Of a stretch of DNA of 16,514 nt, positions 1 to 16,514 are shown in pieces. Both the position numbers and the translations under genes were made by a program. The notes beneath the pieces were generated by a model. The model saw only the letters and a list, made by a program, of their open reading frames with translations, had not been told where the DNA came from and did no database searches. Source of the stretch: a virus. Taxonomy: Duplodnaviria; Heunggongvirae; Uroviricota; Caudoviricetes. The stretch covers positions 1-16,514 of the IMG/VR virus record IMGVR_UViG_2681813234_000010. One strand, given 5' to 3'. How positions within the stretch are numbered: position 1 is the stretch's first letter; every line of letters begins with the position of its first letter.

Positions 1-1236
1 TTGGGTGAACATAAACGTTACAATGACGAGGTTATTCATAATGTCTATCCGAAAGTCATAGATGATGATTTGTTTCTCACAGCTAATCGCATGATGGATC
101 GTGTGATGTTGGAGAAGAATAAACCAGCAGAAGACCTGTTACTTGAATCTGATGTGGTGCAAGAGATCTTTCAGCTATATGAAAGTGGGCTTGGCTCAGG
201 TGCTATCGTTAAGCGTTTGCCGAAAGGGTGGAGTACTGTAAATGTACTAAGGGTTTTACGTGACAAAAATGTAGTAACGCAGAAGATTATCGATAACTTA
301 ACTTTTGAGCGTGTGAATCAAAAGTTGTCAATGAATGGTGTAGCCAATCGCATTCGGAAGGATATAACTATTGCACAAGATGATTACATAACTAACTTAT
401 TCCCGAAGATCCTTAAGTGCGGTTATTGTGGTGGTAATGTTGCGATTCACTATAATCATGTTAGAACGAAATATGTGATTTGTCGAAATCGAGAAGAAAG
501 GAAGATCTGTGATGCAAAATCCATACAGTATATTAGAATTGAAAAAAACATACTCAAATGCGTGAAGAATGTAGATTTTCAAAAATTAATGATAGAAAGT
601 ACTGGCAGTGAAACTTCAGTGCTGGATGGTCTGCATGAAGAGCTATCATCATTACGCAGAGAAGAAAATAGTTATAGCGATAAAATAAATGAAAGAAAAT
701 TAGCAGGTAAAAGAGTAGGTATACATCTCAATGATGGGTTAACGGAGGTGCAGGACAGGATTGAAGAAATAGAAAAAGAAATTATCAATGCTCAAACTGT
801 AAGAGAGATACCTAAATTTGATTTTGATATGGATGAAGTACTTGATCCAATGAACATAGAGCTACGAGCGAAAGTGCGAAAACAGCTTAGGTTAGTACTT
901 AAAGCAGTGAAATACTGGATGTTCGATAAGCGTATTTTTATCCAATTGGAATACTTCAATGATGTACTTTCACACATGCTTGTAATTGATAATAAACGTG
1001 GCGGTGGAGATGTAATATATGAAATGTCTATTGAAGAAAGAAAGGGTGAACGAATCTATACAGTTCATGAAAATGGTCATGCAGTTTTCATTGCATCAGT
1101 AACTATCGGCACAGATATATGGTCATTAGCTTTAAGCCGCACACGTACAATTGATACCATTGGCAATTACCTAAGCCTCCTTGCTCGTGAAGGTTTTGAG
1201 ATCTTTGTGAACGAAGATCAAATTGATTGGTTTTAG
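1..1236 (+). CDS. int: Large serine recombinase (phage integrase), C-terminal ~410 codons; the 5' end lies upstream of the window
   Basis: Frame is open from base 1 to TAG at 1234-1236. The translation shows the tail of a recombinase domain, then a four-Cys zinc-ribbon (KCGYCGG ... CRNREERKICD) and a long charged, coiled-coil-like segment. That order is typical of large serine integrases. The catalytic resolvase domain is not in the window. Confidence 0.75.
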   Translation: MGEHKRYNDEVIHNVYPKVIDDDLFLTANRMMDRVMLEKNKPAEDLLLESDVVQEIFQLYESGLGSGAIVKRLPKGWSTVNVLRVLRDKNVVTQKIIDNLTFERVNQKLSMNGVANRIRKDITIAQDDYITNLFPKILKCGYCGGNVAIHYNHVRTKYVICRNREERKICDAKSIQYIRIEKNILKCVKNVDFQKLMIESTGSETSVLDGLHEELSSLRREENSYSDKINERKLAGKRVGIHLNDGLTEVQDRIEEIEKEIINAQTVREIPKFDFDMDEVLDPMNIELRAKVRKQLRLVLKAVKYWMFDKRIFIQLEYFNDVLSHMLVIDNKRGGGDVIYEMSIEERKGERIYTVHENGHAVFIASVTIGTDIWSLALSRTRTIDTIGNYLSLLAREGFEIFVNEDQIDWF

Positions 1237-1316
1237 TATTGTGAGAGTACCTTACTTTCAATAAGTATGAAAATTCTTTGGAGAACGTAGTTTTTACGTT
1301 TTAAACTTTATTTTCA

Positions 1317-1347
1317 CCTCGCAGGAGCGATTCTGCGAGGTTTTTCC
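1317..1347 (+). terminator. Rho-independent terminator downstream of the integrase gene
   Basis: Perfect 8-bp stem CCTCGCAG (1317-1324) / CTGCGAGG (1333-1340) with an 8-nt loop, immediately followed by TTTTT (1341-1345). Confidence 0.6.
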
Positions 1348-1465
1348 ATGTATGGTAATGCAATGAGGTGAGGCGTGGCTTGGGGGGGCGTATAGAGCGT
1401 TACAGGAAGGATTTGCGTTAAGTGTTAGTTTGATGTGCATATCTGAGTATATTTTCCTATTATCT

Positions 1466-1494
1466 TTGACCAGTCCTCGGGAATAATATATAAT
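1466..1494 (+). promoter_or_regulatory. Sigma70-like promoter (TTGACC, 17-bp spacer, TATAAT)
   Basis: -35 TTGACC at 1466-1471 and a consensus -10 TATAAT at 1489-1494 with a 17-bp spacer, about 90 bp upstream of the ORF starting at 1584. Confidence 0.5.
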
Positions 1495-1583
1495 GGCTTC
1501 ACGCCCTTAATAAAGGCTAGGCAGACAAAAGAGATATATAAATCTTTTCGCTACTGCCGATATCAAGTAGGAGCAAATCCAAA

Positions 1584-1940
1584 ATGACACTCAAACATAA
1601 TGAAACACATATTTATTATTCCAATGATTGTGCCGTAGAACAACAAGATAAAGAAATCTGGATCGACCAGAATTTAGTATATAGCTGCTGTAAAGGCGAT
1701 GAAGTAGAGTATACAGAAGGTAATAAGTCGGACTCTCCATTCTATGGTCAAGAGGCTTTACAAACTATGTATTATACTGACCGTGGAAATGTTCAGTATA
1801 ATAATGAAGATGGGAGTTTTTACTTTCGCCTTGATGATGGGAATATGAATACATACATAGATGGACAACTCCAGATTGATGATCCTAACGGTGACTATGT
1901 AGAATTCATTGAGTTCGCAAATAGTGTAATGTCTAAGTAA
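1584..1940 (+). CDS. Hypothetical small, strongly acidic protein (118 aa)
   Basis: ATG at 1584 preceded by AGGAG (1567-1571); ends at TAA 1938-1940. By manual count about 23 Asp/Glu versus 7 Lys/Arg. No recognisable family motif. Confidence 0.55.
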   Translation: MTLKHNETHIYYSNDCAVEQQDKEIWIDQNLVYSCCKGDEVEYTEGNKSDSPFYGQEALQTMYYTDRGNVQYNNEDGSFYFRLDDGNMNTYIDGQLQIDDPNGDYVEFIEFANSVMSK

Positions 1941-1953
1941 GAAAATTTATAAA

Positions 1954-1971
1954 CGAAGGTGCTAACCTTCG
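1954..1971 (+). terminator. Weak hairpin after the 1584-1940 ORF (possible terminator)
   Basis: 7-bp stem CGAAGGT (1954-1960) / ACCTTCG (1965-1971) with a 4-nt loop. No U-tract follows, so terminator function is doubtful. Confidence 0.25.
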
Positions 1972-2040
1972 ACGGTCATCATATATGACCGATTTTAAGT
2001 GAGATACCATAAATACTCCTATAACAGATAGGAGATATTT

Positions 2041-2214
2041 ATGAATTGGATATACAAAATAATCTTTGAAATCATTGCTACGGCAATCTATATGTTCGTA
2101 CTATTTCCATGTTGGATAGTACTGTGCATCTTTTTTATGTTATTAACAGTATTAGCACTACCTTTGAAAATTCCAACCATAAATAAAATGGTTATCAGGT
2201 TTTTGGAACGATAA
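2041..2214 (+). CDS. Small hydrophobic membrane protein (57 aa); not in the supplied ORF track
   Basis: ATG at 2041 preceded by AGGAG (2030-2034) with a 6-nt spacer; TAA at 2212-2214. The translation MNWIYKIIFEIIATAIYMFVLFPCWIVLCIFFMLLTVLALPLKIPTINKMVIRFLER is almost entirely hydrophobic, consistent with 1-2 transmembrane helices. Confidence 0.4.
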   Translation: MNWIYKIIFEIIATAIYMFVLFPCWIVLCIFFMLLTVLALPLKIPTINKMVIRFLER

Positions 2215-2232
2215 AAAATAACATGGTATAAT
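2203..2232 (+). promoter_or_regulatory. Putative extended -10 promoter upstream of the small ribbon-helix-helix-like ORF
   Basis: TG at 2224-2225 followed by TATAAT at 2227-2232; weak -35-like TTGGAA at 2203-2208. Confidence 0.3.
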
Positions 2233-2352
2233 CCATATTATGGTGATCACTACCTCAACGTGATAATTATAATTCCACATCAAAAAGTAATCCCCAACAT
2301 GGGGATCTTTTTGCGTTGAGAAAAAATGGAAAATGTTAAACAAAGGAATGTT

Positions 2353-2505
2353 ATGAAAGAAAAGAAAACTATTAGTGTTGGGGTGAGATTAAGTCCTACA
2401 CAAGAAGAAATACTAAAATCACTTATAGTGTGTGGTAAGGCTACAACGATGAGTTCAGCCATTCAGTATCTGATACAGCAATATGGGATTTTAGATAGTA
2501 AGTAA
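2353..2505 (+). CDS. Small ribbon-helix-helix (CopG/Arc-like) DNA-binding protein (50 aa); not in the supplied ORF track
   Basis: ATG at 2353 with AGGA 5 nt upstream; TAA at 2503-2505. The translation MKEKKTISVGVRLSPTQEEILKSLIVCGKATTMSSAIQYLIQQYGILDSK fits the ribbon-helix-helix pattern: an N-terminal beta-strand (ISVGVRLS) followed by two short helices. Confidence 0.45.
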   Translation: MKEKKTISVGVRLSPTQEEILKSLIVCGKATTMSSAIQYLIQQYGILDSK

Positions 2506-2512
2506 GGGTTTG

Positions 2513-2560
2513 GTACTTTCACTTTAGAAAGGTACTAACAGTACTTCAGGATGAAGTACT
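2513..2560 (+). repeat. Cluster of four GTACT motifs plus a duplicated AGGATGAA just upstream of the HNH/AP2 gene
   Basis: GTACT at 2513, 2532, 2541 and 2556; AGGATGAA occurs twice (about 2549 and 2570). Likely a regulatory binding array or leader. Confidence 0.3.
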
Positions 2561-2578
2561 TAGTTTCAAGGATGAAAT

Positions 2579-3079
2579 ATGAAAAAGGAAAAAAGAAATG
2601 ACCTAAAGGGTCAGGAATTACCACATGTAAAAGAAGCACTACGAGTATGGAATAACTTTCACTCAAGAGTGCGTAATAACATCAATTATAGTACTGTTAC
2701 CATCTGCGATGACTGGTATCGGTTTAGTAATTTTTATTATTGGTATGTTGAAAATGTTGTTGATGGTTGGCATTTAGATAAAGACATATTAGGAGGTAAT
2801 GAGTACAGCCCAAGTAACTGCATCTTTGTACCGAGAGAAGTAAATCAATTGTTCCGTAAAGCACCAACGTCATTATCAACCGGTGTTGTCGTTAATCATA
2901 AGGGCTATCAAGCACAAGCAACATTTGATAAGAAAGTACATAAGTTTGGGACATACCCAACGATAGAAGAAGCTCATGCTGCTTATGTTATTGGGCGTAA
3001 ATCATATATCTATAAACTATCGCAGAAGTATAAAGCATATCCAAAACTTAGTGCGGTACTATTACAAAAATCAAAATAA
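2579..3079 (+). CDS. HNH-type endonuclease-like protein with a C-terminal AP2-like DNA-binding domain
   Basis: ATG at 2579 with AAGGA 6 nt upstream. Residues WHLDKDILGGNEYSPSNCIFVPREVN match an HNH_3-style H...N...N motif. The downstream GYQAQATFDKKVHKFGTYPTIEEAHAAY resembles an AP2 domain, a pairing common in phage homing-endonuclease-like proteins. Confidence 0.55.
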   Translation: MKKEKRNDLKGQELPHVKEALRVWNNFHSRVRNNINYSTVTICDDWYRFSNFYYWYVENVVDGWHLDKDILGGNEYSPSNCIFVPREVNQLFRKAPTSLSTGVVVNHKGYQAQATFDKKVHKFGTYPTIEEAHAAYVIGRKSYIYKLSQKYKAYPKLSAVLLQKSK

Positions 3080-3144
3080 CGAAATGGCCTGAGTACTGGA
3101 AATACTACAGGTCAATATTAACATCTATCATATGGGTATTTATT

Positions 3145-3669
3145 ATGACAAAAAAGAAAGAGCCGCATGAAATAAAGAAACGTGGACGAAAACCAAAAGA
3201 ACACGATAATGCAGAATTACAAGATCATTTAAGGGGAGTACGCCATCTTAATCAACTTACAGATGAAGTACGTAGAGTAATATCAAACTCTGTTAAAAGT
3301 TACTTTGAAAAGAACAATAAACGTAAGACTTTCTCAAACAAGAATATGCTACTTCTGGTTACATCGACTCGATACATCACAGATGAAGCGATAAAGAACA
3401 ATATCGAGTACTTTGATGCCTTCACACTCAATGAGTACGGCGATTCCTCAGTACGAGATTATAAGATGGTCACGATTGCTATATGTGAGGGTCTGAATGC
3501 AATTCTAAGTAGTGGTAAGCCAGTAAGAAGTGATACACCAGAGGGATCACAGTACTTAACTGGTGAAGAAGCATATCAACTACGTATGGCTTTAGATGGT
3601 GGCTGTACTAAGGCAGACCTACTAAAGGTTATAGCTACAATTTATCCCGAATTAAGACATTCTAAGTAG
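3145..3669 (+). CDS. Hypothetical protein with a basic AT-hook-like N-terminus; possible DNA-binding regulator
   Basis: ORF of 174 aa. The N-terminus has KKRGRKPKE (AT-hook-like). The C-terminal LTGEEAYQLRMALDGGCTKADLLKVIATIY loosely resembles a helix-turn-helix of the sigma region-4 type. Function not established. Confidence 0.5.
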   Translation: MTKKKEPHEIKKRGRKPKEHDNAELQDHLRGVRHLNQLTDEVRRVISNSVKSYFEKNNKRKTFSNKNMLLLVTSTRYITDEAIKNNIEYFDAFTLNEYGDSSVRDYKMVTIAICEGLNAILSSGKPVRSDTPEGSQYLTGEEAYQLRMALDGGCTKADLLKVIATIYPELRHSK

Positions 3670-4122
3670 TGTTTTAATAACGGTTCAAATGTCGTAATTA
3701 AGGTTAAATGGGGTTTTTATGGGGTTGATTAGTGCTGCTTGCACTAGATATAGTATCTAAAATGAGTTAAAAAACACTGTATATGGGTTGTCCCGAATTT
3801 CGACACCATAATTAGAAATTATTAAGACCTCTTGTACTACGTCCAAATCGGTCTTTGAGTGCCTACACTCCCTGCGGTCGTATAGTCACTGAAAAACAAA
3901 TTAAACCGATCCTTGCGTTTTTTCTCGCTAGTACTCGAAAAACACGCAGGGGATTTACTCGCTTTCGCTCAGACAGGTAACAGTACTGACTAAACTATTG
4001 GGGTCGGCCTATGGCCTAAAGTTCGCTTCGCTCTTTTTGAAGTATCTACGCGGGCTAAGCCCTTGTTGGGGTTATCGGGCTGTTTAAGCCCTTACTGAAG
4101 TCATCAAATTATCTAACGACAC

Positions 4123-4246
4123 GAAGCAGTACTATCAATTGATTACTTCAAATGAGTTACTAAGTGAGCAGTCGTCTCACTTGCAATACTTATGATCTAT
4201 ATAAATGAAATCTGCAAGTGAGACTCCGGAGAAGTAGTACTATCAA
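4123..4246. repeat. Two 16-bp direct repeats (15/16 identical) bracketing a palindromic site
   Basis: GAAGCAGTACTATCAA at 4123-4138 and GAAGTAGTACTATCAA at 4231-4246. An extra AAGTGAG half-site copy sits at 4162-4168. Confidence 0.6.
4174..4224. repeat. 51-bp site: perfect 12-bp inverted repeat with a 27-bp AT-rich spacer (candidate attP, origin or operator)
   Basis: GTCTCACTTGCA (4174-4185) and its exact reverse complement TGCAAGTGAGAC (4213-4224). The spacer ATACTTATGATCTATATAAATGAAATC contains a GATC and a TATA-like run. Confidence 0.6.
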
Positions 4247-4403
4247 GTCACATATATTTGAGTACTGAATGATTTAGTTAGTCACAGTTGAAATAATTAA
4301 TATATAAAGGTCTACTTATAAATTCTACCGTGACAACCATCTACTATTTCAATCCAGGCCATTATGACTGGGTTTACGGGAAGCGTGAATAAAACTGTCT
4401 CAG

Positions 4404-5138
4404 TCAACTCAATAAAATTTCCATACTTGTGGGTGAAAACATACGATAGCTGATAATGTCACCTACATTGAAATTTGTTTGGAAAAAACTTCTAAGATCT
4501 GTTCCTCCCATGATTCTAGGTACTTTATTAGTGTTTGCCGTTCTGTTAATGATTGCAGTGAGGCTTGTATTGGTGCTGGAGTTAGTTATTTTTATTCTTG
4601 CACCATCTTCTCCAAACTCATGACTGGCAGCCACGGTAACGTTGAAAAATCCTCTTTGCCAATATGTATTAGCCATTCTGAAATTGTAAGTCGGGCTTGA
4701 TTTCTCTGAAGTGACAATTTCTATGTAATCTGTCGTGATTATCTTTTCCTGATAACCATTCCACTCAGGCTGTAGTACTCTAATTATGTCATCTTCTAAT
4801 GCAGCAGCTAGGTTTAAGTGAAATTGACCATAGTGCATTAATCCATTATCGGGTAAAACAAAAATGTCTACCGCTTCATTGTTTTTTAGATGCCTAATAA
4901 TATTCGCGTTGTTTTTTATATTTGTTGATTGAGTAGGGCCTGGCATAGAATAATGATACATTCTACGTTTAAGTAAACGAGTAGTTTTGCCTACATATTT
5001 TACCTGACCATCACAAATGAACGCATAAAGATTATTTTTGACATCTGAGTGAGAAGGTTCAAGTGTAAATTGTAGTTTTTCGCCATTGAGTTCCCAAAAG
5101 CCAATTTTAATAAATCCAATTTCAAGTAATCTATTCAT
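4404..5138 (-). CDS. GIY-YIG nuclease-domain protein with an unrecognised ~110-aa C-terminal domain
   Basis: ORF of 244 aa. Residues LYAFICDGQVKYVGKTTRLLKRRMYHY match the GIY...YIG core with the conserved Arg. Downstream, AAALEDDIIRVLQPEWN matches the conserved Glu and Asn region (compare UvrC ALLLEHNYIKLYQPRYN). The start ATG overlaps the stop of the upstream gene (ATGAATAG on the minus strand). Confidence 0.65.
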   Translation of the reverse strand: MNRLLEIGFIKIGFWELNGEKLQFTLEPSHSDVKNNLYAFICDGQVKYVGKTTRLLKRRMYHYSMPGPTQSTNIKNNANIIRHLKNNEAVDIFVLPDNGLMHYGQFHLNLAAALEDDIIRVLQPEWNGYQEKIITTDYIEIVTSEKSSPTYNFRMANTYWQRGFFNVTVAASHEFGEDGARIKITNSSTNTSLTAIINRTANTNKVPRIMGGTDLRSFFQTNFNVGDIISYRMFSPTSMEILLS

Positions 5139-5877
5139 GTATGACCTTCTTTCGAACTATGAATTTGTCAGTGGGGTAATTATTTGAATAGGTAGAAATA
5201 ATAAACGCTGAAACTTTCCGGTGTGTCTCTGTAACCTGATTCTTAAACTCTAAAAATTCAGCAATAGTTAAATCTTTTGCCTGTCGGTCTGCGTGTATCA
5301 GTGAGTCAACTTCAAAATATGAAGAAAGAAATAAGTTGTATATATTCCCATATTCCCGATTAGTGTCCTTAAGGATATTAATGATAGAGCAACTATAGTT
5401 ACTTAATTCAAAACCATTTCTTGGTATTGTATTTAAACTGTTAATTACTGAATAGGAGAGGTTAGCGAACTCATCCATTAAATTATCTAACTTGTGAACC
5501 TCATTTCTTAGTGATTCGTTGATGGCACAATTGTTATTTAATACGCTGATCGATTGTTTGCCCACTGACCAATATAAATTTCTCAAATGGTGGCTGGCAG
5601 AATTAACTTTTGTTAAATTAGTATAAATCGATTCTTCGATAACATTATGAACCACATCATATTGCTTTTGTGCTAACCATTCAGGTGCTTTTTTATACGC
5701 AGCAATCGCTATACCTAAAGTACCAATTGTAGCTAATGAACTCAACCAATCACTTACGCTTCCCCATTCAAAGCCATTAGAATCAGAAAATAGTACTTTA
5801 ATTAAAGCTAATATCGCTACCCATAGAAGTACTATGACGGTAGCAACTAATAATTTGTTCCATCCTTCAACTTTCAC
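5131..5877 (-). CDS. Membrane protein with two N-terminal transmembrane helices and a ~180-aa soluble domain
   Basis: ORF of 248 aa with a probable GTG start at 5877. Hydrophobic segments LLVATVIVLLWVAILALIKVLF and WLSSLATIGTLGIAIAAY. Its stop overlaps the start of the GIY-YIG gene by 8 nt, implying an operon. Confidence 0.55.
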   Translation of the reverse strand: MKVEGWNKLLVATVIVLLWVAILALIKVLFSDSNGFEWGSVSDWLSSLATIGTLGIAIAAYKKAPEWLAQKQYDVVHNVIEESIYTNLTKVNSASHHLRNLYWSVGKQSISVLNNNCAINESLRNEVHKLDNLMDEFANLSYSVINSLNTIPRNGFELSNYSCSIINILKDTNREYGNIYNLFLSSYFEVDSLIHADRQAKDLTIAEFLEFKNQVTETHRKVSAFIISTYSNNYPTDKFIVRKKVIHE

Positions 5878-6049
5878 TTTCTTAACCCGTAGAATGGTTC
5901 ATGGATGAAAAATTTTACCATTTGCAGTTATGTTTCGTAAATGATCATCGTAGAGTGAAAATTTAACTTAAGTGGAAGTTGCAACTCCATTTGGTGGAGT
6001 TGTACTGGTTGAGATCACGATTTCTTTGAAAAAAACGGGGCTGGTTGCT

Positions 6050-6076
6050 TTGAACTGGTTAACATAGTGGGATAAT
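6050..6076 (+). promoter_or_regulatory. Putative promoter for the HNH / PD-(D/E)xK cassette
   Basis: TTGAAC at 6050-6055, then TG (6068-6069) followed by GATAAT at 6071-6076 (extended -10-like). AGGAG at 6100-6104 precedes the ATG at 6110. Confidence 0.3.
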
Positions 6077-6109
6077 AAGCACCGAAGAAGAACTTCAGCA
6101 GGAGCAGGT

Positions 6110-6838
6110 ATGAACAGAAAGCAATTCATCCAGTCACACGGAGCTACTTGCAGTAACTGGACGTGGAGTTGGTCATTTGTTAACCATGAAAAGAAGATGG
6201 TCATCTTTGGGTCATGGGATGTTGAGAGTGAACAAGAGCGGTCTGTAATACTCCGGGAGAAATGGGAATACAACTCAAACAACAAAAAACAACCGGGATA
6301 CACCCAGGCACTGGAACACATCCGTTTAGCCCATGAAGGCTACGAACTTTACACCTTCAATATGGTTTTCGCAGAACACCCTGAGAATCCTGAAATTGCA
6401 GTAATCAAGGATTTTGAGCGTAAATTAAACAAGCGATATCTTCGTAAAGAAGGTGTTGTTTGGTATGCAGACTTCTTACCTAATCCATTCCCTGATGAAA
6501 TTCCTTCAGGAGAGAGTTTTGTTGAAGGTGCAAAGACTCAAGTAACAGTGAACTACTACGAACGCGATCCAAAGGCCCGACAAGCCTGCATCCAGCATCA
6601 CGGTACTACCTGTAAATGCTGTGGCTTCGATTTTGAGAAGGTCTATGGTACACATGGCCGTGGGTTCATTCATGTACATCACATCAAGCCGCTTCATACG
6701 ATTGGGGAAAACTATGTGGTCAATCCCGTAACAGATATGATCCCATTATGTCCAAACTGCCATGCAATGGTACATCACGGAAGCGAAGTACTTACAATTG
6801 CAGATTTGAAAAAGAAAATGACATTCTGGAGCGAGTAA
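6110..6838 (+). CDS. Zn-finger HNH endonuclease (McrA-like HNH) with an unrecognised ~150-aa N-terminal domain
   Basis: ORF of 242 aa with a good ribosome-binding site. The C-terminus CKCCGFDFEKVYGTHGRGFIHVHHIKPL...DMIPLCPNCHAMVHH is a classic HNH motif with CxxC...CxxCH zinc ligands, as in McrA-type enzymes. The N-terminal domain has no motif I can assign. Confidence 0.7.
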   Translation: MNRKQFIQSHGATCSNWTWSWSFVNHEKKMVIFGSWDVESEQERSVILREKWEYNSNNKKQPGYTQALEHIRLAHEGYELYTFNMVFAEHPENPEIAVIKDFERKLNKRYLRKEGVVWYADFLPNPFPDEIPSGESFVEGAKTQVTVNYYERDPKARQACIQHHGTTCKCCGFDFEKVYGTHGRGFIHVHHIKPLHTIGENYVVNPVTDMIPLCPNCHAMVHHGSEVLTIADLKKKMTFWSE

Positions 6839-7630
6839 ATGGATTTATCACAATTGAGCAACGTCGAATTGATGCAACTGAATCAGTTGACGCTTGATGA
6901 GTTAGAACGACGAGAGGTTATCAGAACCAGAAACAATCCTATCAGTGAGTACACTGAATGGCTGGTTGCGGATAAGATGCAGATGGTACTGGCTGCACCT
7001 AGTACTAAAGGGTATGACGCTACAACAACTGATGATCGAAAAATTCAGATTAAGTCTCGTAAGAATAATTTAAAAAACCAATCATTAATTCTTGGAATTA
7101 TCAGAAATTATGATCTGAACCAATTCGATGAACTCATTGCCGTAATATATAACCATGATTTCTCAATTCGTTATGCCATATCCATACCACATGAATTAGT
7201 GAAGGAATATGGTTTTTATAATGAGCATCAGAATGGGTACACTTTAAGAATAAGCAATTTATTACTTAATGATCCACGTGTAACAGATATCATTGAATTT
7301 ATTGACCCAGACACTGAACGTTCAAAGGAAGATATCACGGTGAAGCCAGATTCAAACACTATCCGGGATGTACAGACAATAGGAATGCAGACGTTTGTTG
7401 AGTACTATCAGTATGTTGAAAGTGGTATGAACACAACTGATCTTGTTGAAAAGATGGTAACTGACCATCCAGAATGGAAGGAAAGTACTGCAAGAACAAA
7501 GGCATCTTCAATGCGAAGAGTATTTAAGAATTGCGACAACGTTGAAGCACTAAAAATCATCTATAAGTCGGATCACCCAGCAATAACGGATGAGATTAAG
7601 AGTAAACTTATGACGCTTTGGGATAAATGA
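6839..7630 (+). CDS. Hypothetical protein with a PD-(D/E)xK-like (Hjc/restriction-endonuclease-fold) motif
   Basis: ATG at 6839 directly abuts the TAA of the HNH gene (TAAATG). EWLVADKMQMVLAAPSTKGYDATTTDDRKIQIKSRK fits an E ... D ... (E/Q)xK nuclease-core pattern. The fold assignment is tentative. Confidence 0.5.
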   Translation: MDLSQLSNVELMQLNQLTLDELERREVIRTRNNPISEYTEWLVADKMQMVLAAPSTKGYDATTTDDRKIQIKSRKNNLKNQSLILGIIRNYDLNQFDELIAVIYNHDFSIRYAISIPHELVKEYGFYNEHQNGYTLRISNLLLNDPRVTDIIEFIDPDTERSKEDITVKPDSNTIRDVQTIGMQTFVEYYQYVESGMNTTDLVEKMVTDHPEWKESTARTKASSMRRVFKNCDNVEALKIIYKSDHPAITDEIKSKLMTLWDK

Positions 7631-7729
7631 ACAAAGTTTTGGTTATATTTTTGACGCAAAAAGATATAATTGTAGTACTTCCACCTTTCGCATTTGGGTA
7701 GGTTTGTTTGGGCGATTGGTGGAAGTGTA

Positions 7730-8041
7730 TCAAAACGGTAATTCTCCCTGCTCACAAAACCATCCATCTTCATCATGCTGCTTATAGACAGAATTCTCAG
7801 TACTCAGATAATGCAAACCTTCCAGTACTGAACTTAGCGGCGTTTCCAGTATGAACACGAAGCAATCACGCTCAATCGTGCCTAACCAGTATGTACCTTG
7901 CTGGTTCTGGAAGAAAACGCGATCCCCATATGAAAACTCATCAAGACTGTATCCCCAATAGCAGACCTTAGCCCATTGGCCTAAATGCTCAAACTGCTGC
8001 ACCCCGCGTTTGATTGCCAGATCAAAACCGTTCTTGCCCAT
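7730..8041 (-). CDS. Hypothetical protein (103 aa) in a GC-richer island
   Basis: ORF with ATG at 8041. Its composition matches the surrounding GC-rich segment rather than the AT-rich backbone. No family motif recognised. Confidence 0.4.
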   Translation of the reverse strand: MGKNGFDLAIKRGVQQFEHLGQWAKVCYWGYSLDEFSYGDRVFFQNQQGTYWLGTIERDCFVFILETPLSSVLEGLHYLSTENSVYKQHDEDGWFCEQGELPF

Positions 8042-8146
8042 ACTATGCCTCTACATTAATACTGGTTATTCATACAGTATTGCATCACATTTCGCACAGA
8101 TCCAGCCATGAAAATACTTACCACTAAAAACGGTAGAAATGTAATT

Positions 8147-8216
8147 ATCGATCATTTTAATTTGATCAATGGTTAAAAATGATCAATTATCAATCAGTTA
8201 TGACAACTGAGAGATC
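8147..8216. promoter_or_regulatory. GATC-rich divergent intergenic region with a repeated TGATCAAT motif
   Basis: Four GATC sites in about 67 bp (8150, 8164, 8181, 8213). TGATCAAT occurs twice (8163-8170 and 8180-8187). The region lies between the divergently oriented 7730-8041 ORF and the EAL-like ORF. Confidence 0.4.
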
Positions 8217-8219
8217 AAC

Positions 8220-8729
8220 ATGAAACTCGAACATTGGGCAATTCCGATCACTTCATTGGACGGTATGTTACTCGGCGTAGAGCTGTAAACCCGTGTACTG
8301 ATAAACGGTTGCCAGGTACTGATGGGGGCAGGAAAAGAAAGTGAATATATCCGTCACGTGGTCTATCAGAACCAGTTAAGAATGATTCAGGGTAAAGCCG
8401 CATGGTTCAAAGAAAAGGGGCTGTTGTGCGTGCTCAGTACTGGCACAGGTACACGCTATGAAGATCTACCATTCATACGGTACATGGCTGCTGAACCACT
8501 GCTAACGAACGGTTACGACTTAGTTCGACTAAATAGACGGTTCACTGAAGAACACATAGAGCGGCTGATCTTCCCGGTACTCATCAATAACATCATGCAG
8601 TACTGCGACAAGGTGATCGTACAAGTCAGCAGCAATCGAAATCACAGGATTTTACGAGAGTCGGGGGTATGGGCAGTACAGGGAGAGTACAGGCCAATCC
8701 GCTTTGAACAATGCGAACAACTTCTATAG
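8220..8729 (+). pseudogene. EAL-like (possibly YdiV-type degenerate EAL) ORF interrupted by a single in-frame TAA
   Basis: ATG at 8220 opens MKLEHWAIPITSLDGMLLGVEL, then TAA at 8286-8288, and the same frame continues open to 8729 (170 codons in total). The N-terminal xPIxxxxGxxxGVEL and C-terminal WAVQGEY patterns resemble EAL-domain ends. The family assignment is tentative. Confidence 0.35.
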
Positions 8730-8739
8730 GGATATAACA

Positions 8740-9012
8740 ATGAAAATACTAATCGTCATGTTGGTAGTACTGCTCACAGGCTGCGGCAGCGTACATCACT
8801 CATTCATGGATAAAGCCTTTGTCGGCAACGTTGATAACAAGGCTACAATAGTACTGTTCGACGCTGGCACACGAAACGGGGTGAAGTACTACCGGCCTCA
8901 GTTCCAGAGTGATTGTGGCCGCACCTACAATCCGATTTACCAGGTGGACAATGGCAGTACTACATGCCATATACGAGAGGAAAGAATTAAAAAAATGCAT
9001 CAATATAGATAA
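8740..9012 (+). CDS. Small lipoprotein (90 aa)
   Basis: ATG at 8740 with AGGGA 8 nt upstream. The N-terminus MKILIVMLVVLLTGCGS has a hydrophobic signal peptide and the lipobox L-T-G-C. It starts 11 nt after the EAL-like ORF stop. Confidence 0.55.
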   Translation: MKILIVMLVVLLTGCGSVHHSFMDKAFVGNVDNKATIVLFDAGTRNGVKYYRPQFQSDCGRTYNPIYQVDNGSTTCHIREERIKKMHQYR

Positions 9013-9092
9013 TAAACAAAAATCAAAGAGATAGAATTATTAAATTATTAAGTGTATGTGGCATGATGAAAAATTAAATAATATATAATACC

Positions 9093-9122
9093 CTCATGCT
9101 GTTATTGATAAAACAGCATGAG
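9093..9122. terminator. Bidirectional hairpin terminator between convergent genes
   Basis: Perfect 11-bp stem CTCATGCTGTT (9093-9103) / AACAGCATGAG (9112-9122) with an 8-nt loop and A/T-rich flanks on both sides. It sits between the lipoprotein gene (+) and the DUF3800 gene (-). Confidence 0.55.
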
Positions 9123-9132
9123 AATATATATT

Positions 9133-10287
9133 TCAACGTAGCATGGCTAATGTTCTGGAAATTCTTATTATATCCTTCTCAATATCATCTAAAACAGGAG
9201 TTGAGTTTCTGCTTCGCTCTGCAATTTCTTGCAAAATATATCTATTTAAATGGTTGTTAACATTTTTAGGGTCAAGGTTTTCTGGTGTGGGAACAACACA
9301 GCACTGCCAATAAAAAATCTCATCTTCAAAATGATTTAGCCATTTAGAATGATATTTTTCTTTCGATTTTTTCTTGTTAAGGACATAAATGCTAGCCGCA
9401 GCTACCACATCCGCAATTTGTATACCATGCGTGACTTTAGAATCAGAAAGAATCATTGGCTCAGATAGCTTAAATGTGATCGGGATTTTTTTATCATGAA
9501 AAGTCTCGAACACAATCTCATCATTGCCTATCATCTCATTGAATGAGTCCTGATGAGTAATTAATGGTTTTGAGCTGTCGCATATAGCTCTCAATGTACC
9601 AAACTTACTACTCATATCGCACAGGAGATTATAAAGAGAAGTCGTTGTCAAATCTAATAACCACTTATCAATCCCAGTACCCTCAAGGCCTTCATATTCT
9701 TCTTCAATTATAGAGATGTTATTCTTGGCGAAATCATGAATGTCCATCATAATTTCAGAATTTTTAGAACCAACAACTGGTTCGATAAAACTATTAACCA
9801 ATATTTTACCTCGTGAAAAATCTTCAAATCGCGAATGTAATAGTTCTGAATATTCATCCTTAGCTATTAAAGAAAAATACATTATATTTGAGATGAATAG
9901 GTGAAATTTAAGGTTGTAAAAAATTGAGCTTTTAGCTGCTAATACTGGCTCAAAAATATATTCGAAGAATTTTCCTGAGAGGGCATATTTTTTTTCGTTT
10001 ACAACCACACGCATACGACCACGGAAATGATTAAGTATTTCATCTACGGCTGGTTGAAATCTCTTGCTATTTACGAGAGTGCTACCTTTTAGCTCTTCGG
10101 CTGCGATCGAGTACTTGTTTATTATATAATCAACAAACTGTTTACTTTCCTCATCATCAGTCACGACTGCTGCGTAACTAAAAAAAGGCTGATCTTTTGA
10201 AAGTAAGTTATTACCAGTGAATCCTGATTCATCGAAATATACATTCTTTACCAATTTGGTCATTCCTTTATGAGCTACAATGTGCAT
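9133..10287 (-). CDS. DUF3800-family protein
   Basis: The N-terminal VYFDESGFTG and C-terminal GIQIADVVAAA match the two conserved DUF3800 signature motifs. The start is uncertain: ATG at 10287, ATG at 10263 or TTG at 10254. None has an ideal ribosome-binding site. Confidence 0.6.
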   Translation of the reverse strand: MHIVAHKGMTKLVKNVYFDESGFTGNNLLSKDQPFFSYAAVVTDDEESKQFVDYIINKYSIAAEELKGSTLVNSKRFQPAVDEILNHFRGRMRVVVNEKKYALSGKFFEYIFEPVLAAKSSIFYNLKFHLFISNIMYFSLIAKDEYSELLHSRFEDFSRGKILVNSFIEPVVGSKNSEIMMDIHDFAKNNISIIEEEYEGLEGTGIDKWLLDLTTTSLYNLLCDMSSKFGTLRAICDSSKPLITHQDSFNEMIGNDEIVFETFHDKKIPITFKLSEPMILSDSKVTHGIQIADVVAAASIYVLNKKKSKEKYHSKWLNHFEDEIFYWQCCVVPTPENLDPKNVNNHLNRYILQEIAERSRNSTPVLDDIEKDIIRISRTLAMLR

Positions 10288-10466
10288 GTGCTATTAATAT
10301 AACATTGTAATAATGCTAATGTAAAATAGAATGTAAGTATTTTTAAGCAAGCTAATTAAGTTAAATTACTAATTAAGGTACTCCGGCAGCCCAGCTTAGA
10401 ACGCGAGTTTTCGGCACCGGATTCTTTAAGTTATGTGTGAAGTTTAGATAGCTTCCCGCACCGCAC

Positions 10467-11030
10467 TTAGCAAAGTACAACACCTATTTCATTTAACGCA
10501 CAATCGCAATGACGGTTTGTCGGACATTCGCATAATTTGAATACTGCATAAGATCCTTTAAGGGTATCGGTTACATACTTGTCCATTTCTTCAACTACAG
10601 ATGATGAGCAATATAAATGAAAACCAACACAGAAAGAATTTCGCATCGGATACTTACATTCTTGTATAGAGTTGAGTTTCAAATGGTCTGCTTGCAATCC
10701 TCTTTTTAAGGCAGATGAACGCTTAGTACATTTCAGCTCAATAAAGATATAGTCTTCAAAAAGGGTATCTTTTTCTCTCATTATTATATCGATTTTTGAG
10801 AGCTTGCTTGCAGGGAAATTATTAGGGTCAAGAAAAGCTGTAACTTCACGTTTAACTTCATATTTTCTTTTTTTGTTAAGGAAGTGCTCAAATTCAATTT
10901 GTAGCCATTTTTCCCAATCATTAGTTTCATTACTGACGAAGGAATACAGACGCCTCTTTATATCTTCATTCTTTAGGAAGCTATTCAGTAACTTTACCAG
11001 TAAAGAAAAATCATTGTTGCGGTCTGACAT
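10467..11030 (-). CDS. Hypothetical Cys-rich protein with a possible PD-(D/E)xK-like core
   Basis: ORF of 187 aa. KIDIIMREKDTLFEDYIFIELKCTK fits a D ... ExK pattern. The C-terminus contains a Cys/His cluster (CVGFHLYC ... CEC ... HCDC), suggesting metal binding. Confidence 0.5.
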   Translation of the reverse strand: MSDRNNDFSLLVKLLNSFLKNEDIKRRLYSFVSNETNDWEKWLQIEFEHFLNKKRKYEVKREVTAFLDPNNFPASKLSKIDIIMREKDTLFEDYIFIELKCTKRSSALKRGLQADHLKLNSIQECKYPMRNSFCVGFHLYCSSSVVEEMDKYVTDTLKGSYAVFKLCECPTNRHCDCALNEIGVVLC

Positions 11031-11044
11031 AGTGATCTCAATAA

Positions 11045-13412
<2,368 letters not shown>

Positions 13413-13415
13413 TAA

Positions 13416-16514
<3,099 letters not shown>

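Follow-up and report, generated by a model that had tools for sequence, protein, structure and literature searches.

A divergent gene cassette with an interrupted EAL-like gene, probably a long-resident part of a prophage family

Layout and base composition of the locus

The DNA analysed here, called the window throughout, is the 16,514-nucleotide stretch covering positions 1 to 16,514 of the Caudoviricetes record IMGVR_UViG_2681813234_000010 (IMG/VR). An initial annotation singled out positions 7640–9012 as a GC-richer island holding a minus-strand gene, an EAL-like ORF and a lipoprotein gene, and proposed that it was a likely horizontally acquired moron. All three genes are present. The features of the cassette and its flanks are as follows.

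6110–7630, plus strand: HNH + DUF6998 gene pair (left flank), variable cargo between p103 and orf248
7730–8041, minus strand: p103, a phage protein of 103 aa, first gene of the leftward unit
8042–8219: divergent control region between p103 and the EAL-like gene (178 bp, 31% GC, 5 GATC)
8060–8079: predicted LexA (SOS) box, TACTGGTTATTCATACAGTA, 19 nt upstream of the p103 start codon
8162–8167 (-35, TTGATC) and 8185–8190 (-10, AATTAT), plus strand: putative promoter of the EAL-like/lipoprotein pair, read by eye in a conserved block
8175–8197, plus strand: GATC palindromic operator-like block, AAAAATGATCAATTATCAATCAG, overlapping the putative -10 of that promoter
8220–8729, plus strand: EAL-like gene assigned to the STM1697/YdiV class, 169 codons, a pseudogene in this copy
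8740–9012, plus strand: small lipoprotein of 90 aa, lipobox LTGC with Gly at +2
9035–9051: 8-bp tandem repeat, AATTATTA; copy number 2 in the window, 7 in E. coli AREA_C483
9093–9122: hairpin with an 11-bp stem and 8-nt loop, where the lipoprotein and DUF3800 genes converge
9133–10287, minus strand: DUF3800 gene (right flank; Pfam DUF3800 3e-9, phrog_12991 8.5e-119)

The cassette lies between two sets of variable cargo. In the left-hand pair, Pfam identifies HNH and DUF6998, and PADLOC returns mREase_IV (4e-8) and mREase_II (1.3e-62); the two genes look like methyl-directed restriction enzymes. Because this pair recurs at ~84% identity in other E. coli chromosomes where the rest of the window is unmatched, and because it is absent from most relatives (in the related loci L008 and L010, p103 abuts the orf248 homologue), it appears to be a clearer candidate for a mobile insert than the cassette is. 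The DUF3800 gene on the right is likewise variable, with other genes at its place in relatives. The hairpin that precedes it has energies of -18.6 kcal/mol on the plus strand and -23.2 on the minus strand (z = -6.6 and -6.9). It had been called a strong bidirectional terminator, and a terminator pattern scan indeed flagged it on both strands, with mediocre T-tracts. An Rfam scan of the window gave no match.

Computed exactly, the GC content of 7640–9012 is 0.434, versus 0.367 for the remaining window, and the segment ranks first for GC among 1373-bp windows in a whole-window scan. The 60-nt lines within it have a mean GC of 0.442 (range 0.28–0.53) and those outside a mean of 0.368 (range 0.20–0.53; Mann-Whitney p = 4e-6). 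The reported contrast of 48–52% versus 30–38% GC is therefore right in direction and overstated in size, with only 36% of the lines inside reaching 0.48. Nor is this the sole such patch in the window: the HNH gene (6110–6838) has 43.2% GC and positions 12700–13100 have 45.4%. Third codon positions show the contrast best: GC3 is 0.48 for p103 and 0.52 for both the EAL-like and lipoprotein genes, versus 0.27–0.35 for backbone genes. By GC, GC3, the line-by-line comparison and the pattern in relatives, the EAL-like/lipoprotein unit is distinct in base composition from the neighbouring genes.

The cassette also carries the DNA signature of its prophage family, in which AGTACT is ~10-fold enriched and GCGC is absent. 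Its genes contain 8 AGTACT where 1.9 are expected (maximum 5 in 300 synonymous-codon shuffles), and all CDS of the window together contain no GCGC where synonymous-codon shuffling predicts 14.6. A candidate cause of the AGTACT excess, the "methyltransferase" of the AREA_C483 prophage, had no match in a Pfam scan, and a literature search on AGTACT over-representation returned nothing relevant.

Control region and products of the cassette

The description of a GATC-rich divergent control region holds: five GATC fall within 178 bp, versus a mean of 0.69 per 178 bp, forming the densest GATC cluster of the window, and relatives retain 2–4 GATC at homologous positions. The initial annotation overlooked that the likely promoter of the EAL-like gene is covered by a conserved GATC palindrome. 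This block (8175–8197) is the best-conserved part of an alignment of the intergenic regions from 8 loci, and its version in L018 is a perfect palindrome, TGATCAAATATTGATCA. The putative promoter beneath it agrees with the consensus at 8/12 positions, under the threshold of the promoter scan. This palindrome probably serves as the operator of some regulator, encoded by the phage or by its host, and may be sensitive to Dam methylation.

A perfect LexA box upstream of p103 had also escaped notice. TACTG-N10-CAGTA with zero mismatch occurs a single time in the window, at 8060–8079. This AGTACT-rich DNA abounds in TACTG and CAGTA half-sites, and chance alone would give ~0.1 perfect LexA-type boxes per window, so the case for this one rests on its conservation. 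A CTG-N10-CAG box stands at the equivalent place in L001, L008, L010, L014, L018, L019 and L021, amid diverged surroundings; a LexA-type box is thus kept in all p103-bearing relatives (7–8), and it is absent from that place in L012, which lacks p103. The p103 protein itself had no match in Pfam or PADLOC, and a profile search of the PDB was empty or at chance level. Domain and profile searches detected no similarity to a known antirepressor or DNA-binding fold, and for both p103 and the lipoprotein the profile searches gave no informative homologues. In P22-like phages, distant homologues of p103 belong to the non-essential ea region.

In the EAL-like gene, codon 23 (8286–8288) reads TAA in place of GAA, a single nonsense substitution that the initial annotation overlooked. 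The residual ORF (8322–8729) could encode 135 aa. Sequencing error was considered as the source of this stop and rejected, since it is present in six independent assemblies. The frame is intact in AREA_C483, P0001, P0002 and L021. Because the TAA is identical in 6 independent assemblies and dN/dS is 0.13 between the window and the intact AREA_C483 allele, we regard the nonsense allele as real and recent. The EAL-like copy of L019 is broken by two frameshifts, making two lineages with a pseudogenised gene. The locus had been proposed to carry a c-di-GMP-related or YdiV-like conversion gene; the comparisons below uphold the YdiV/STM1697 class, but the gene is a pseudogene here and any such conversion function has therefore probably been lost in this copy.

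On profile and model comparison, the EAL-like gene is a member of the YdiV/STM1697 class. A profile of 10 family members matches STM1697 (PDB 5hxg_A) with an E value of 2.1e-30; the same profile matches YdiV weakly, at the N-terminus (E 0.035–0.038). An AF2 model of the protein has a pLDDT of 83, with low confidence at residues 75–79 and 93–95. The best Foldseek match of this model is 5hxg_A, a chain of the STM1697-FlhD complex (E 1.5e-13, TMq 0.78), followed by YdiV 3tlq (E 4e-9), and both rank above catalytic EAL domains. A TIM-barrel-like EAL fold is supported by 80 PDB matches at E <= 0.001, of which the 50 listed are all EAL or EAL-like. Among viral sources, no EAL-like fold was found in BFVD, the phage-record search for the protein gave a single match on a 2-kb fragment, and a literature search for prophage-borne EAL-like/YdiV proteins returned nothing relevant.

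Conservation within the family is highest in the segment RLNRRFTEE.IERLIFPVLI..I.QYCDKV, which aligns with STM1697 residues 155–183; these hold most of the listed FlhD contacts (PMC5622320). The contact residues of STM1697 are V115, L116, L136, V147, F160, K167, L172, L173, K175, H176 and Y180 (PMC5622320). In the profile alignment three are identical (F160=F108, L173=L121, Y180=Y128) and three conservatively changed (L172 to V120, K167 to R115, V147 to Leu). K175 and H176 correspond to N123 and N124, the former being Lys in most relatives; L136 falls in a deleted WLDDLG segment, and V115 and L116 are unaligned. Even between YdiV and STM1697 the key interface residues are not the same (PMC5622320). 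FlhD binding by the EAL-like protein is not assured, even for the intact allele, because it has 169 aa versus ~235 aa, has lost the WLDDLG strand with L136 and has Asn at the positions of K175 and H176.

It is very improbable that the gene encodes, or once encoded, an active c-di-GMP phosphodiesterase or sensor that rewires host c-di-GMP signalling. The EAL-like fold would suit such a role, as would an NCBIfam PdeH match at E 1e-5 and, on manual reading of the alignments, a GVELETR motif that preserves the Glu and Arg of E-A-L-x-R and a QG kept near the C-terminus. However, the PdeH match covers only the C-terminal 54 aa (residues 115–168) at 24.8 bits, versus a cut-off of 190. A Pfam scan of the intact 169-aa allele found no family at E <= 0.1, hence no PF00563 EAL, and PADLOC had no match for the protein. 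The WLDDLG strand, equivalent to DDFG, is deleted in the window's subfamily and kept by other family members. In an alignment inspected by eye rather than by HMM, conservation is lost at the positions of the catalytic Asn, Glu, Lys and Glu, and the full set of metal- and substrate-binding EAL residues is absent. We reject an active phosphodiesterase on the missing Pfam EAL, the PdeH score below cut-off and the lost catalytic residues. Furthermore, STM1697 and YdiV, the closest relatives with a solved structure, show neither binding nor hydrolysis of c-di-GMP (PMC5622320), and this copy of the gene is truncated.

The lipoprotein gene begins 10 nt after the EAL-like stop codon. Its product has a signal peptide with a lipobox of the form [LVI][ASTVI][GAS]C (MKILIVMLVVLLTGC); the lipobox Cys is nearly invariant among 19 homologues, and the mature protein has two conserved Cys. 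It is probably sent to the outer membrane, because of the Gly at +2. An exhaustive profile search of 1.84 billion proteins found 33 cluster representatives, indicating a very small family, and a few matches to large multi-domain proteins (PKD/Ig-like, tail-spike chaperone) were uninformative. There was no PDB or Pfam match, with Pfam and PADLOC giving only sub-threshold, chance-level scores (E >= 0.03). Among phage families, the protein matches phrog_1754 (E 8.6e-6) and, over residues 1–55 only, Cor phrog_1119 (E 0.0024). The dN/dS of the gene is 0.09.

The cassette in related prophages

The p103, EAL-like, lipoprotein order is syntenic in Lelliottia, Buttiauxella, Pseudescherichia, Scandinavium, Phytobacter, a Pantoea plasmid and gut metagenomes. 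Relatives from at least 7 genera have the cassette at the same position, with 42–78% protein identity to the window. The shared order is variable cargo, p103, EAL-like gene, lipoprotein gene, variable cargo, p187 and terS-terL-portal; it was read in L008/9, L010/11, L012/13 (without p103), L014, L018, L019 and L021, with the terS-terL-portal tail visible where the contig reaches far enough. The EAL-like gene of L018 and L019 is of a distant, YdiV-like type that tblastn missed and inspection of the ORFs brought out. Identity to the window is 87–91% for terL and portal in several of the loci.

The compositional contrast extends to these relatives. GC of the cassette exceeds that of both 3-kb flanks in 8/9 loci, the exception being L001, which has a GC-rich IS3/group II intron insertion at its left, and in all relatives checked the cassette genes have a higher GC3 than the genes next to them. 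Each relative's cassette has 6–11 AGTACT and no GCGC. Between the window and L021, dS is similar in magnitude for cassette and backbone genes.

The EAL-like/lipoprotein slot is not constant. It holds a different lipoprotein (122 aa) in L015 and an unrelated 109-aa gene in L020, and the pair itself is found in 8 other lineages. Because p103 is kept in L015 and L020, where the pair is replaced, we take it to be backbone of the prophage family and not cargo, in disagreement with its inclusion in the proposed acquired island. The presence-and-replacement pattern of a moron is seen for the EAL-like/lipoprotein pair only, and p103 behaves otherwise. For that pair the idea of moron-like cargo stands; a recent foreign origin does not.

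No donor lineage could be named. A megablast of 7600–9130 against phage and plasmid collections found nothing, and the single match among 5426 E. coli genomes is the same prophage. A tblastn of the three cassette proteins against phage records gave only distant or unannotated matches.

Origin and possible role of the cassette

We favor, at a probability of roughly 60%, a reading in which the island is a long-resident, conserved control module of the prophage family, made up of a LexA-controlled p103 and an old accessory operon with an anti-FlhD-type EAL-like gene and a lipoprotein gene, the former recently inactivated in this copy. The module would belong to AT-rich (~37% GC) Enterobacterales prophages of an uncharacterised family that integrates by a large serine recombinase, and would sit between two slots for variable cargo. 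Leftward, the LexA-box promoter region would drive p103 and, ancestrally, orf248/orf244 behind it, and this unit may be switched on by DNA damage. Rightward, a weak sigma-70-like promoter under the GATC palindrome would drive a two-gene operon ending at the 9093–9122 hairpin. The EAL-like protein, shortened and non-catalytic, is predicted to bind FlhD and to damp flagellar class II transcription in the lysogen. Its partner would be a small lipoprotein with a disulfide bond, probably located in the outer membrane, that may mask a surface receptor. The pair is best seen as accessory but old, having acquired the AGTACT-rich, GCGC-free signature while keeping host-like GC3, and the GAA-to-TAA change at codon 23 would have inactivated the EAL-like gene recently in the window's lineage.

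A more far-reaching version, which we hold to be unlikely as a whole, is that the family keeps a host-behaviour switch: a miniaturised STM1697-type anti-FlhD4C2 factor and an outer-membrane lipoprotein, with host-like GC that lets them escape H-NS silencing. With flagella off and the receptor masked, the lysogen would exclude flagellotropic or receptor-dependent phages, hide its flagellin, or both; the divergent LexA-controlled gene would act at induction, and repeated pseudogenisation (the window's lineage and L019) would mark hosts in which motility loss is too costly.

Against the long-resident module stands the original proposal of a recently acquired foreign moron, in which this phage took up, from a donor of higher GC, a segment bearing lysogenic-conversion genes. 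The GC and GC3 excess, the unit's own promoter-like region and hairpin, the differing slot cargo of L015 and L020, and an EAL-like class that is otherwise chromosomal would all fit it. However, the cassette occupies the same position across genera, is GC-richer there as well, shares the family's AGTACT enrichment and GCGC absence, has dS on the scale of the backbone and has no near-identical counterpart among the phage and plasmid sequences searched. We find this proposal quite improbable, and "recent" acquisition appears largely refuted by these sequence comparisons. The composition need not reflect origin at all: higher GC could be maintained for expression from an H-NS-silenced, AT-rich prophage, or could follow from amino-acid content. 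H-NS prefers AT-rich DNA. The contrast persists across relatives at ~50% protein divergence and holds for p103 even without the other two genes, and the alternative slot cargo is AT-rich (GC3 0.30 and 0.33). Amino-acid content is no explanation, however, because the contrast lies mainly at GC3, and the other GC-richer patches (the HNH gene and part of terL) have no such rationale. We consider this account possible but doubtful.

A further alternative treats the cassette as core lysis-lysogeny circuitry, with p103 as a LexA-controlled antirepressor or induction trigger, the GATC palindrome as an immunity operator and the EAL-like protein co-opted for a phage-internal role. The LexA box conserved alongside p103, the divergent layout with its palindromic operator-like block and the wider retention of p103 than of the EAL-like/lipoprotein pair are consistent with this, and a CI/Cro-type repressor was not recognised among the window ORFs scanned. 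It is nonetheless unlikely in full: p103 resembles no known antirepressor or DNA-binding fold, its distant homologues lie in a non-essential region, and the EAL-like gene is dispensable, being interrupted in 6 assemblies, frameshifted in L019 and replaced in L015 and L020. This idea and that of cargo are partly compatible, as p103 could be regulatory and the rightward operon cargo.

If the intact allele does bind FlhD, it would be a phage-borne member of a class, YdiV/STM1697, so far treated as chromosomal, and would add a protein-level route of prophage control over host flagella to the known routes through AppY and TldR (literature search). For this window the practical message is modest, as the EAL-like gene is dead. 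The locus is also a warning against reading every GC/GC3 island that has a promoter and a terminator as a recent import, since such a segment can be old and have evolved together with its phage lineage; a lineage-specific k-mer signature, here the surplus of AGTACT and the lack of GCGC, gives an independent means to separate the two.

Several known systems bear comparison with the cassette. Phage morons, a usage that goes back to Hendrix and colleagues on lambdoid phages, are independent transcription units of atypical composition. Like them, the EAL-like/lipoprotein unit departs in composition from the backbone and lies between backbone genes with replacement in some relatives, and it has a putative promoter and a terminator-like hairpin of its own; unlike them, it is syntenic in most family members and bears the backbone k-mer signature. 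LexA-controlled prophage genes include tum of phage 186 and the Gifsy antirepressors. With these p103 shares a perfect predicted LexA box near a small phage gene, kept across relatives, whereas its sequence has no similarity to known antirepressors. The Cor superinfection-exclusion lipoproteins (phrog_1119) are, like the cassette's, small prophage lipoproteins with a lipobox and a probable outer-membrane location. The match to Cor, however, spans just the signal peptide and ~35 residues, homology beyond the signal peptide was not found, and the conserved core (GVKYYRPQFQSDC...STGC) is specific to the very small family described here.

YdiV (RflP, STM1344; E. coli and Salmonella; PDB 3tlq, 4es4) is the second-best fold match of the EAL-like protein, at only ~14% identity in the structural alignment. 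The likeness is to a class of degenerate EAL proteins that act through protein-protein contact, and the slot of L018 and L019 holds a more YdiV-like paralogue with an LWLGNLGS motif. The closest comparison is with STM1697 (PDB 5hxg), the anti-FlhD4C2 factor of Salmonella Typhimurium. In contrast to its 235 aa, the EAL-like protein has 169 and is missing ~50–65 residues, including the strand with L136; its gene is prophage-encoded, sits beside a lipoprotein gene in a putative operon and has the stop at codon 23 in this copy. Even so, STM1697 is the best match in both profile and fold, its FlhD-contact helix aligns, and, as in STM1697, nothing in the EAL-like protein suggests a catalytic EAL domain.

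The prophage family and its cassette

The window takes in the larger part of a prophage's left half. The element is AT-rich (37.3% GC). The following features were located.

1-1236, window start: C-terminal part of a large serine recombinase
After the recombinase: small early ORFs, a cargo region, terS (11069), a GpA-type terL, portal and the beginning of the capsid gene
7730-8041, minus strand: p103, a member of phrog_2100
8060-8079: candidate LexA box TACTGGTTATTCATACAGTA, the window's only perfect TACTG-N10-CAGTA
8175-8197: GATC-containing palindrome AAAAATGATCAATTATCAATCAG
8220-8729: EAL-like gene (169 aa), STM1697-class
8740-9012: lipoprotein gene with an LTGC lipobox, Gly at +2 and two conserved Cys
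9093-9122: hairpin, z about -6.7, both strands

A prophage adjoining yeaG in E. coli AREA_C483 is 97.7% identical across the 63% of the window that aligns; IS elements and a group II intron break up that copy. Contigs identical to the window over the segments checked are present in at least five more assemblies. For the backbone, no close cultured relative was found among 50,697 phage records, with the best terL match at 36% identity. Looking up diverged homologues and scanning one genome per species recovered related loci from Lelliottia, Buttiauxella, Pseudescherichia, Scandinavium, Phytobacter, a Pantoea plasmid and gut metagenomes. All have a common gene order of variable cargo, p103, EAL-like gene, lipoprotein gene, further variable cargo, p187 and, where the contig reaches that far, terS-terL-portal, except that loci L012/13 are without p103 and the EAL-like gene of L018/L019 is of a distant YdiV-like type. 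Cassette proteins are 42–78% identical between these relatives and the window.

Distant homologues of p103 lie in the ea region of P22-like phages, and a fold search with p103 gave no informative match. The lipoprotein family is tiny, and its match to Cor-like proteins is weak and limited to the N-terminus. The 8-bp repeat AATTATTA at 9035-9051, in the stretch separating the lipoprotein gene from the hairpin, has two copies in the window and seven in AREA_C483 (L001, about 16440-16495), and is therefore a variable-number repeat. A degraded relative in a prophage remnant in ybhA of E. coli G3/10 (L024, 11294-12262) still matches at 87.6% identity over the end of the lipoprotein gene (its last 144 nt), the spacer, the hairpin and DUF3800. 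No EAL-like gene is annotated there, and the locus is apparently what is left of a cassette.

Composition and age of the cassette

The island at 7640-9012 is an old, conserved cassette that differs in composition from its surroundings and whose STM1697-class gene is inactivated. The initial annotation had described it as a GC-richer, likely horizontally acquired moron; that observation holds in part, and so does its interpretation. Exact counts uphold the direction of the GC difference (43.4% versus 36.7% elsewhere in the window, the top-ranked segment of 1373 bp) but not its magnitude, as 60-nt lines within the island average 44% with only 36% of them reaching 48%, and lines outside range from 20 to 53%. 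The contrast is carried by GC3, which is 0.48–0.52 in the three island genes versus 0.27–0.35 in the backbone. GC-richer patches also occur elsewhere, in the HNH gene (43%) and part of terL (45%).

The cassette is not a recent import. Related phages carry the same genes, which argues against a recent insert, but these genes do not match their surroundings in composition, because the GC contrast persists everywhere: in every relative checked, either cassette GC exceeds that of the flanks or cassette GC3 exceeds that of neighboring genes. Escape from H-NS silencing is one possible explanation of this persistence. What does stand of the moron proposal is that the EAL-like/lipoprotein pair is accessory. 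Its position holds a different lipoprotein in L015 and an unrelated ORF in L020, with p103 retained in both.

The slots flanking the cassette on both sides are hotspots, and what they carry is more likely to be recent mobile cargo than the island itself is. The left slot (6110-7630) carries an HNH (mREase_IV-like) and DUF6998 (mREase_II-like, PADLOC E 1e-62) gene pair whose sequences resemble methyl-directed restriction enzymes. This pair, which splits an ancestral leftward unit from p103 to orf248, is lacking from most phage relatives. At least nine other E. coli chromosomes, in which the rest of the window is unmatched, carry it at about 84% identity. It looks like a mobile defense module. 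DUF3800 in the right slot is variable too.

Independently of this, two traits, an excess of AGTACT and an absence of GCGC, mark the phage family as a whole and are common to every cassette. The AGTACT palindrome occurs 55 times in the window, where base composition predicts 5.5 (z about 21); order-3 Markov simulations averaged 24 and never exceeded 40. Coding sequence holds 38 versus 9.6 by synonymous-codon shuffling, and the count in the island genes alone is above all 300 synonymous shuffles. Each of the three codon phases is represented, as is intergenic DNA, and the site often appears as CAGTACTG. Across the window (1-16514) and diverged relatives L008, L010, L012, L014, L018 and L021, density is similar at 2–3.6 per kb, versus 0.1–0.2 per kb in unrelated enterobacterial loci. 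GCGC is completely absent from the window, against 15–20 expected, with one estimate at about 18–20 and synonymous-codon shuffling at 14.6 (lowest of 300 shuffles, 7). In L002, L008, L010, L012, L014, L018, L019 and L021 it is confined to the host flanks and missing from the prophage parts, so that the prophage can be delimited by where GCGC is lacking. Such a pattern points to a GCGC-specific nuclease, either the host's or a phage's, being strongly avoided.

The divergent control region

The region between p103 and the EAL-like gene was rightly called GATC-rich, with five GATC in 178 bp, the densest cluster in the window. An intergenic alignment of eight diverged loci shows two blocks conserved amid diverged DNA, namely the LexA box and the GATC palindrome. 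A LexA-type box lies upstream of p103 in all relatives possessing that gene. We read the palindrome as overlapping the -10 of a putative rightward promoter, TTGATC-17-AATTAT.

On the minus strand at 4404-5877, orf248 has a weak DUF2231 membrane-protein match and orf244 a weak GIY-YIG match. In relatives without the HNH/DUF6998 insert both immediately follow p103 and therefore may share a predicted LexA-controlled leftward unit. The adjoining 3670-4403 (about 730 bp), between orf174 and orf244, has no ORF of at least 60 aa, only one 41-aa TTG ORF, and no Rfam match.

The EAL-like gene and STM1697

The EAL-like protein has no match in Pfam. We built a profile from 10 full-length sequences out of 12 homologues in this small family, which matched Salmonella STM1697 (PDB 5hxg) at E 2e-30 and YdiV weakly. 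The AlphaFold model (pLDDT 83) best matches a chain of the STM1697-FlhD complex (E 1.5e-13, TMq 0.78), followed by YdiV and then catalytic EAL domains. STM1697 and YdiV are degenerate EAL proteins that act through FlhD binding and neither bind nor cleave c-di-GMP (PMC5622320). The EAL-like/YdiV-like call is therefore supported, while its description as c-di-GMP-related is not.

Codon 23 is TAA in the window versus GAA in AREA_C483 and the 58-member cluster P0001. The stop is identical across six independent assemblies and is therefore a real allele. A dN/dS of 0.13 between the window and AREA_C483 indicates that the gene evolved under constraint until recently. In L018/L019 the slot holds a distant YdiV-like paralogue (22% identical). 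The copy on Pantoea sp. C3 plasmid pC3_1 (L019, 12517-13857) carries two frameshifts, a second, independent inactivation in this prophage family.

In a lysogen, the rightward operon would supply a minimal anti-FlhD4C2 factor and an outer-membrane lipoprotein, controlled at the GATC palindrome by a regulator and possibly by Dam. These two proteins would reduce expression of flagella and change the cell surface. DNA damage would lead to LexA cleavage and de-repression of p103. The anti-FlhD4C2 function would have been lost in the window's lineage; the stop may in addition have a polar effect on the lipoprotein gene, or M35 (8322) may serve as a restart site for translation.

Compared with STM1697, the helix with the central FlhD contacts (PMC5622320) aligns to the best-conserved segment of the EAL-like family. 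Three of the contact residues (F160, L173 and Y180) are unchanged, and the substitutions at L172 and K167 are conservative. The EAL-like protein is much shorter than STM1697 and YdiV (169 versus about 235 aa), and the WLDDLG strand, retained by other members of the family, is lost from its subfamily.
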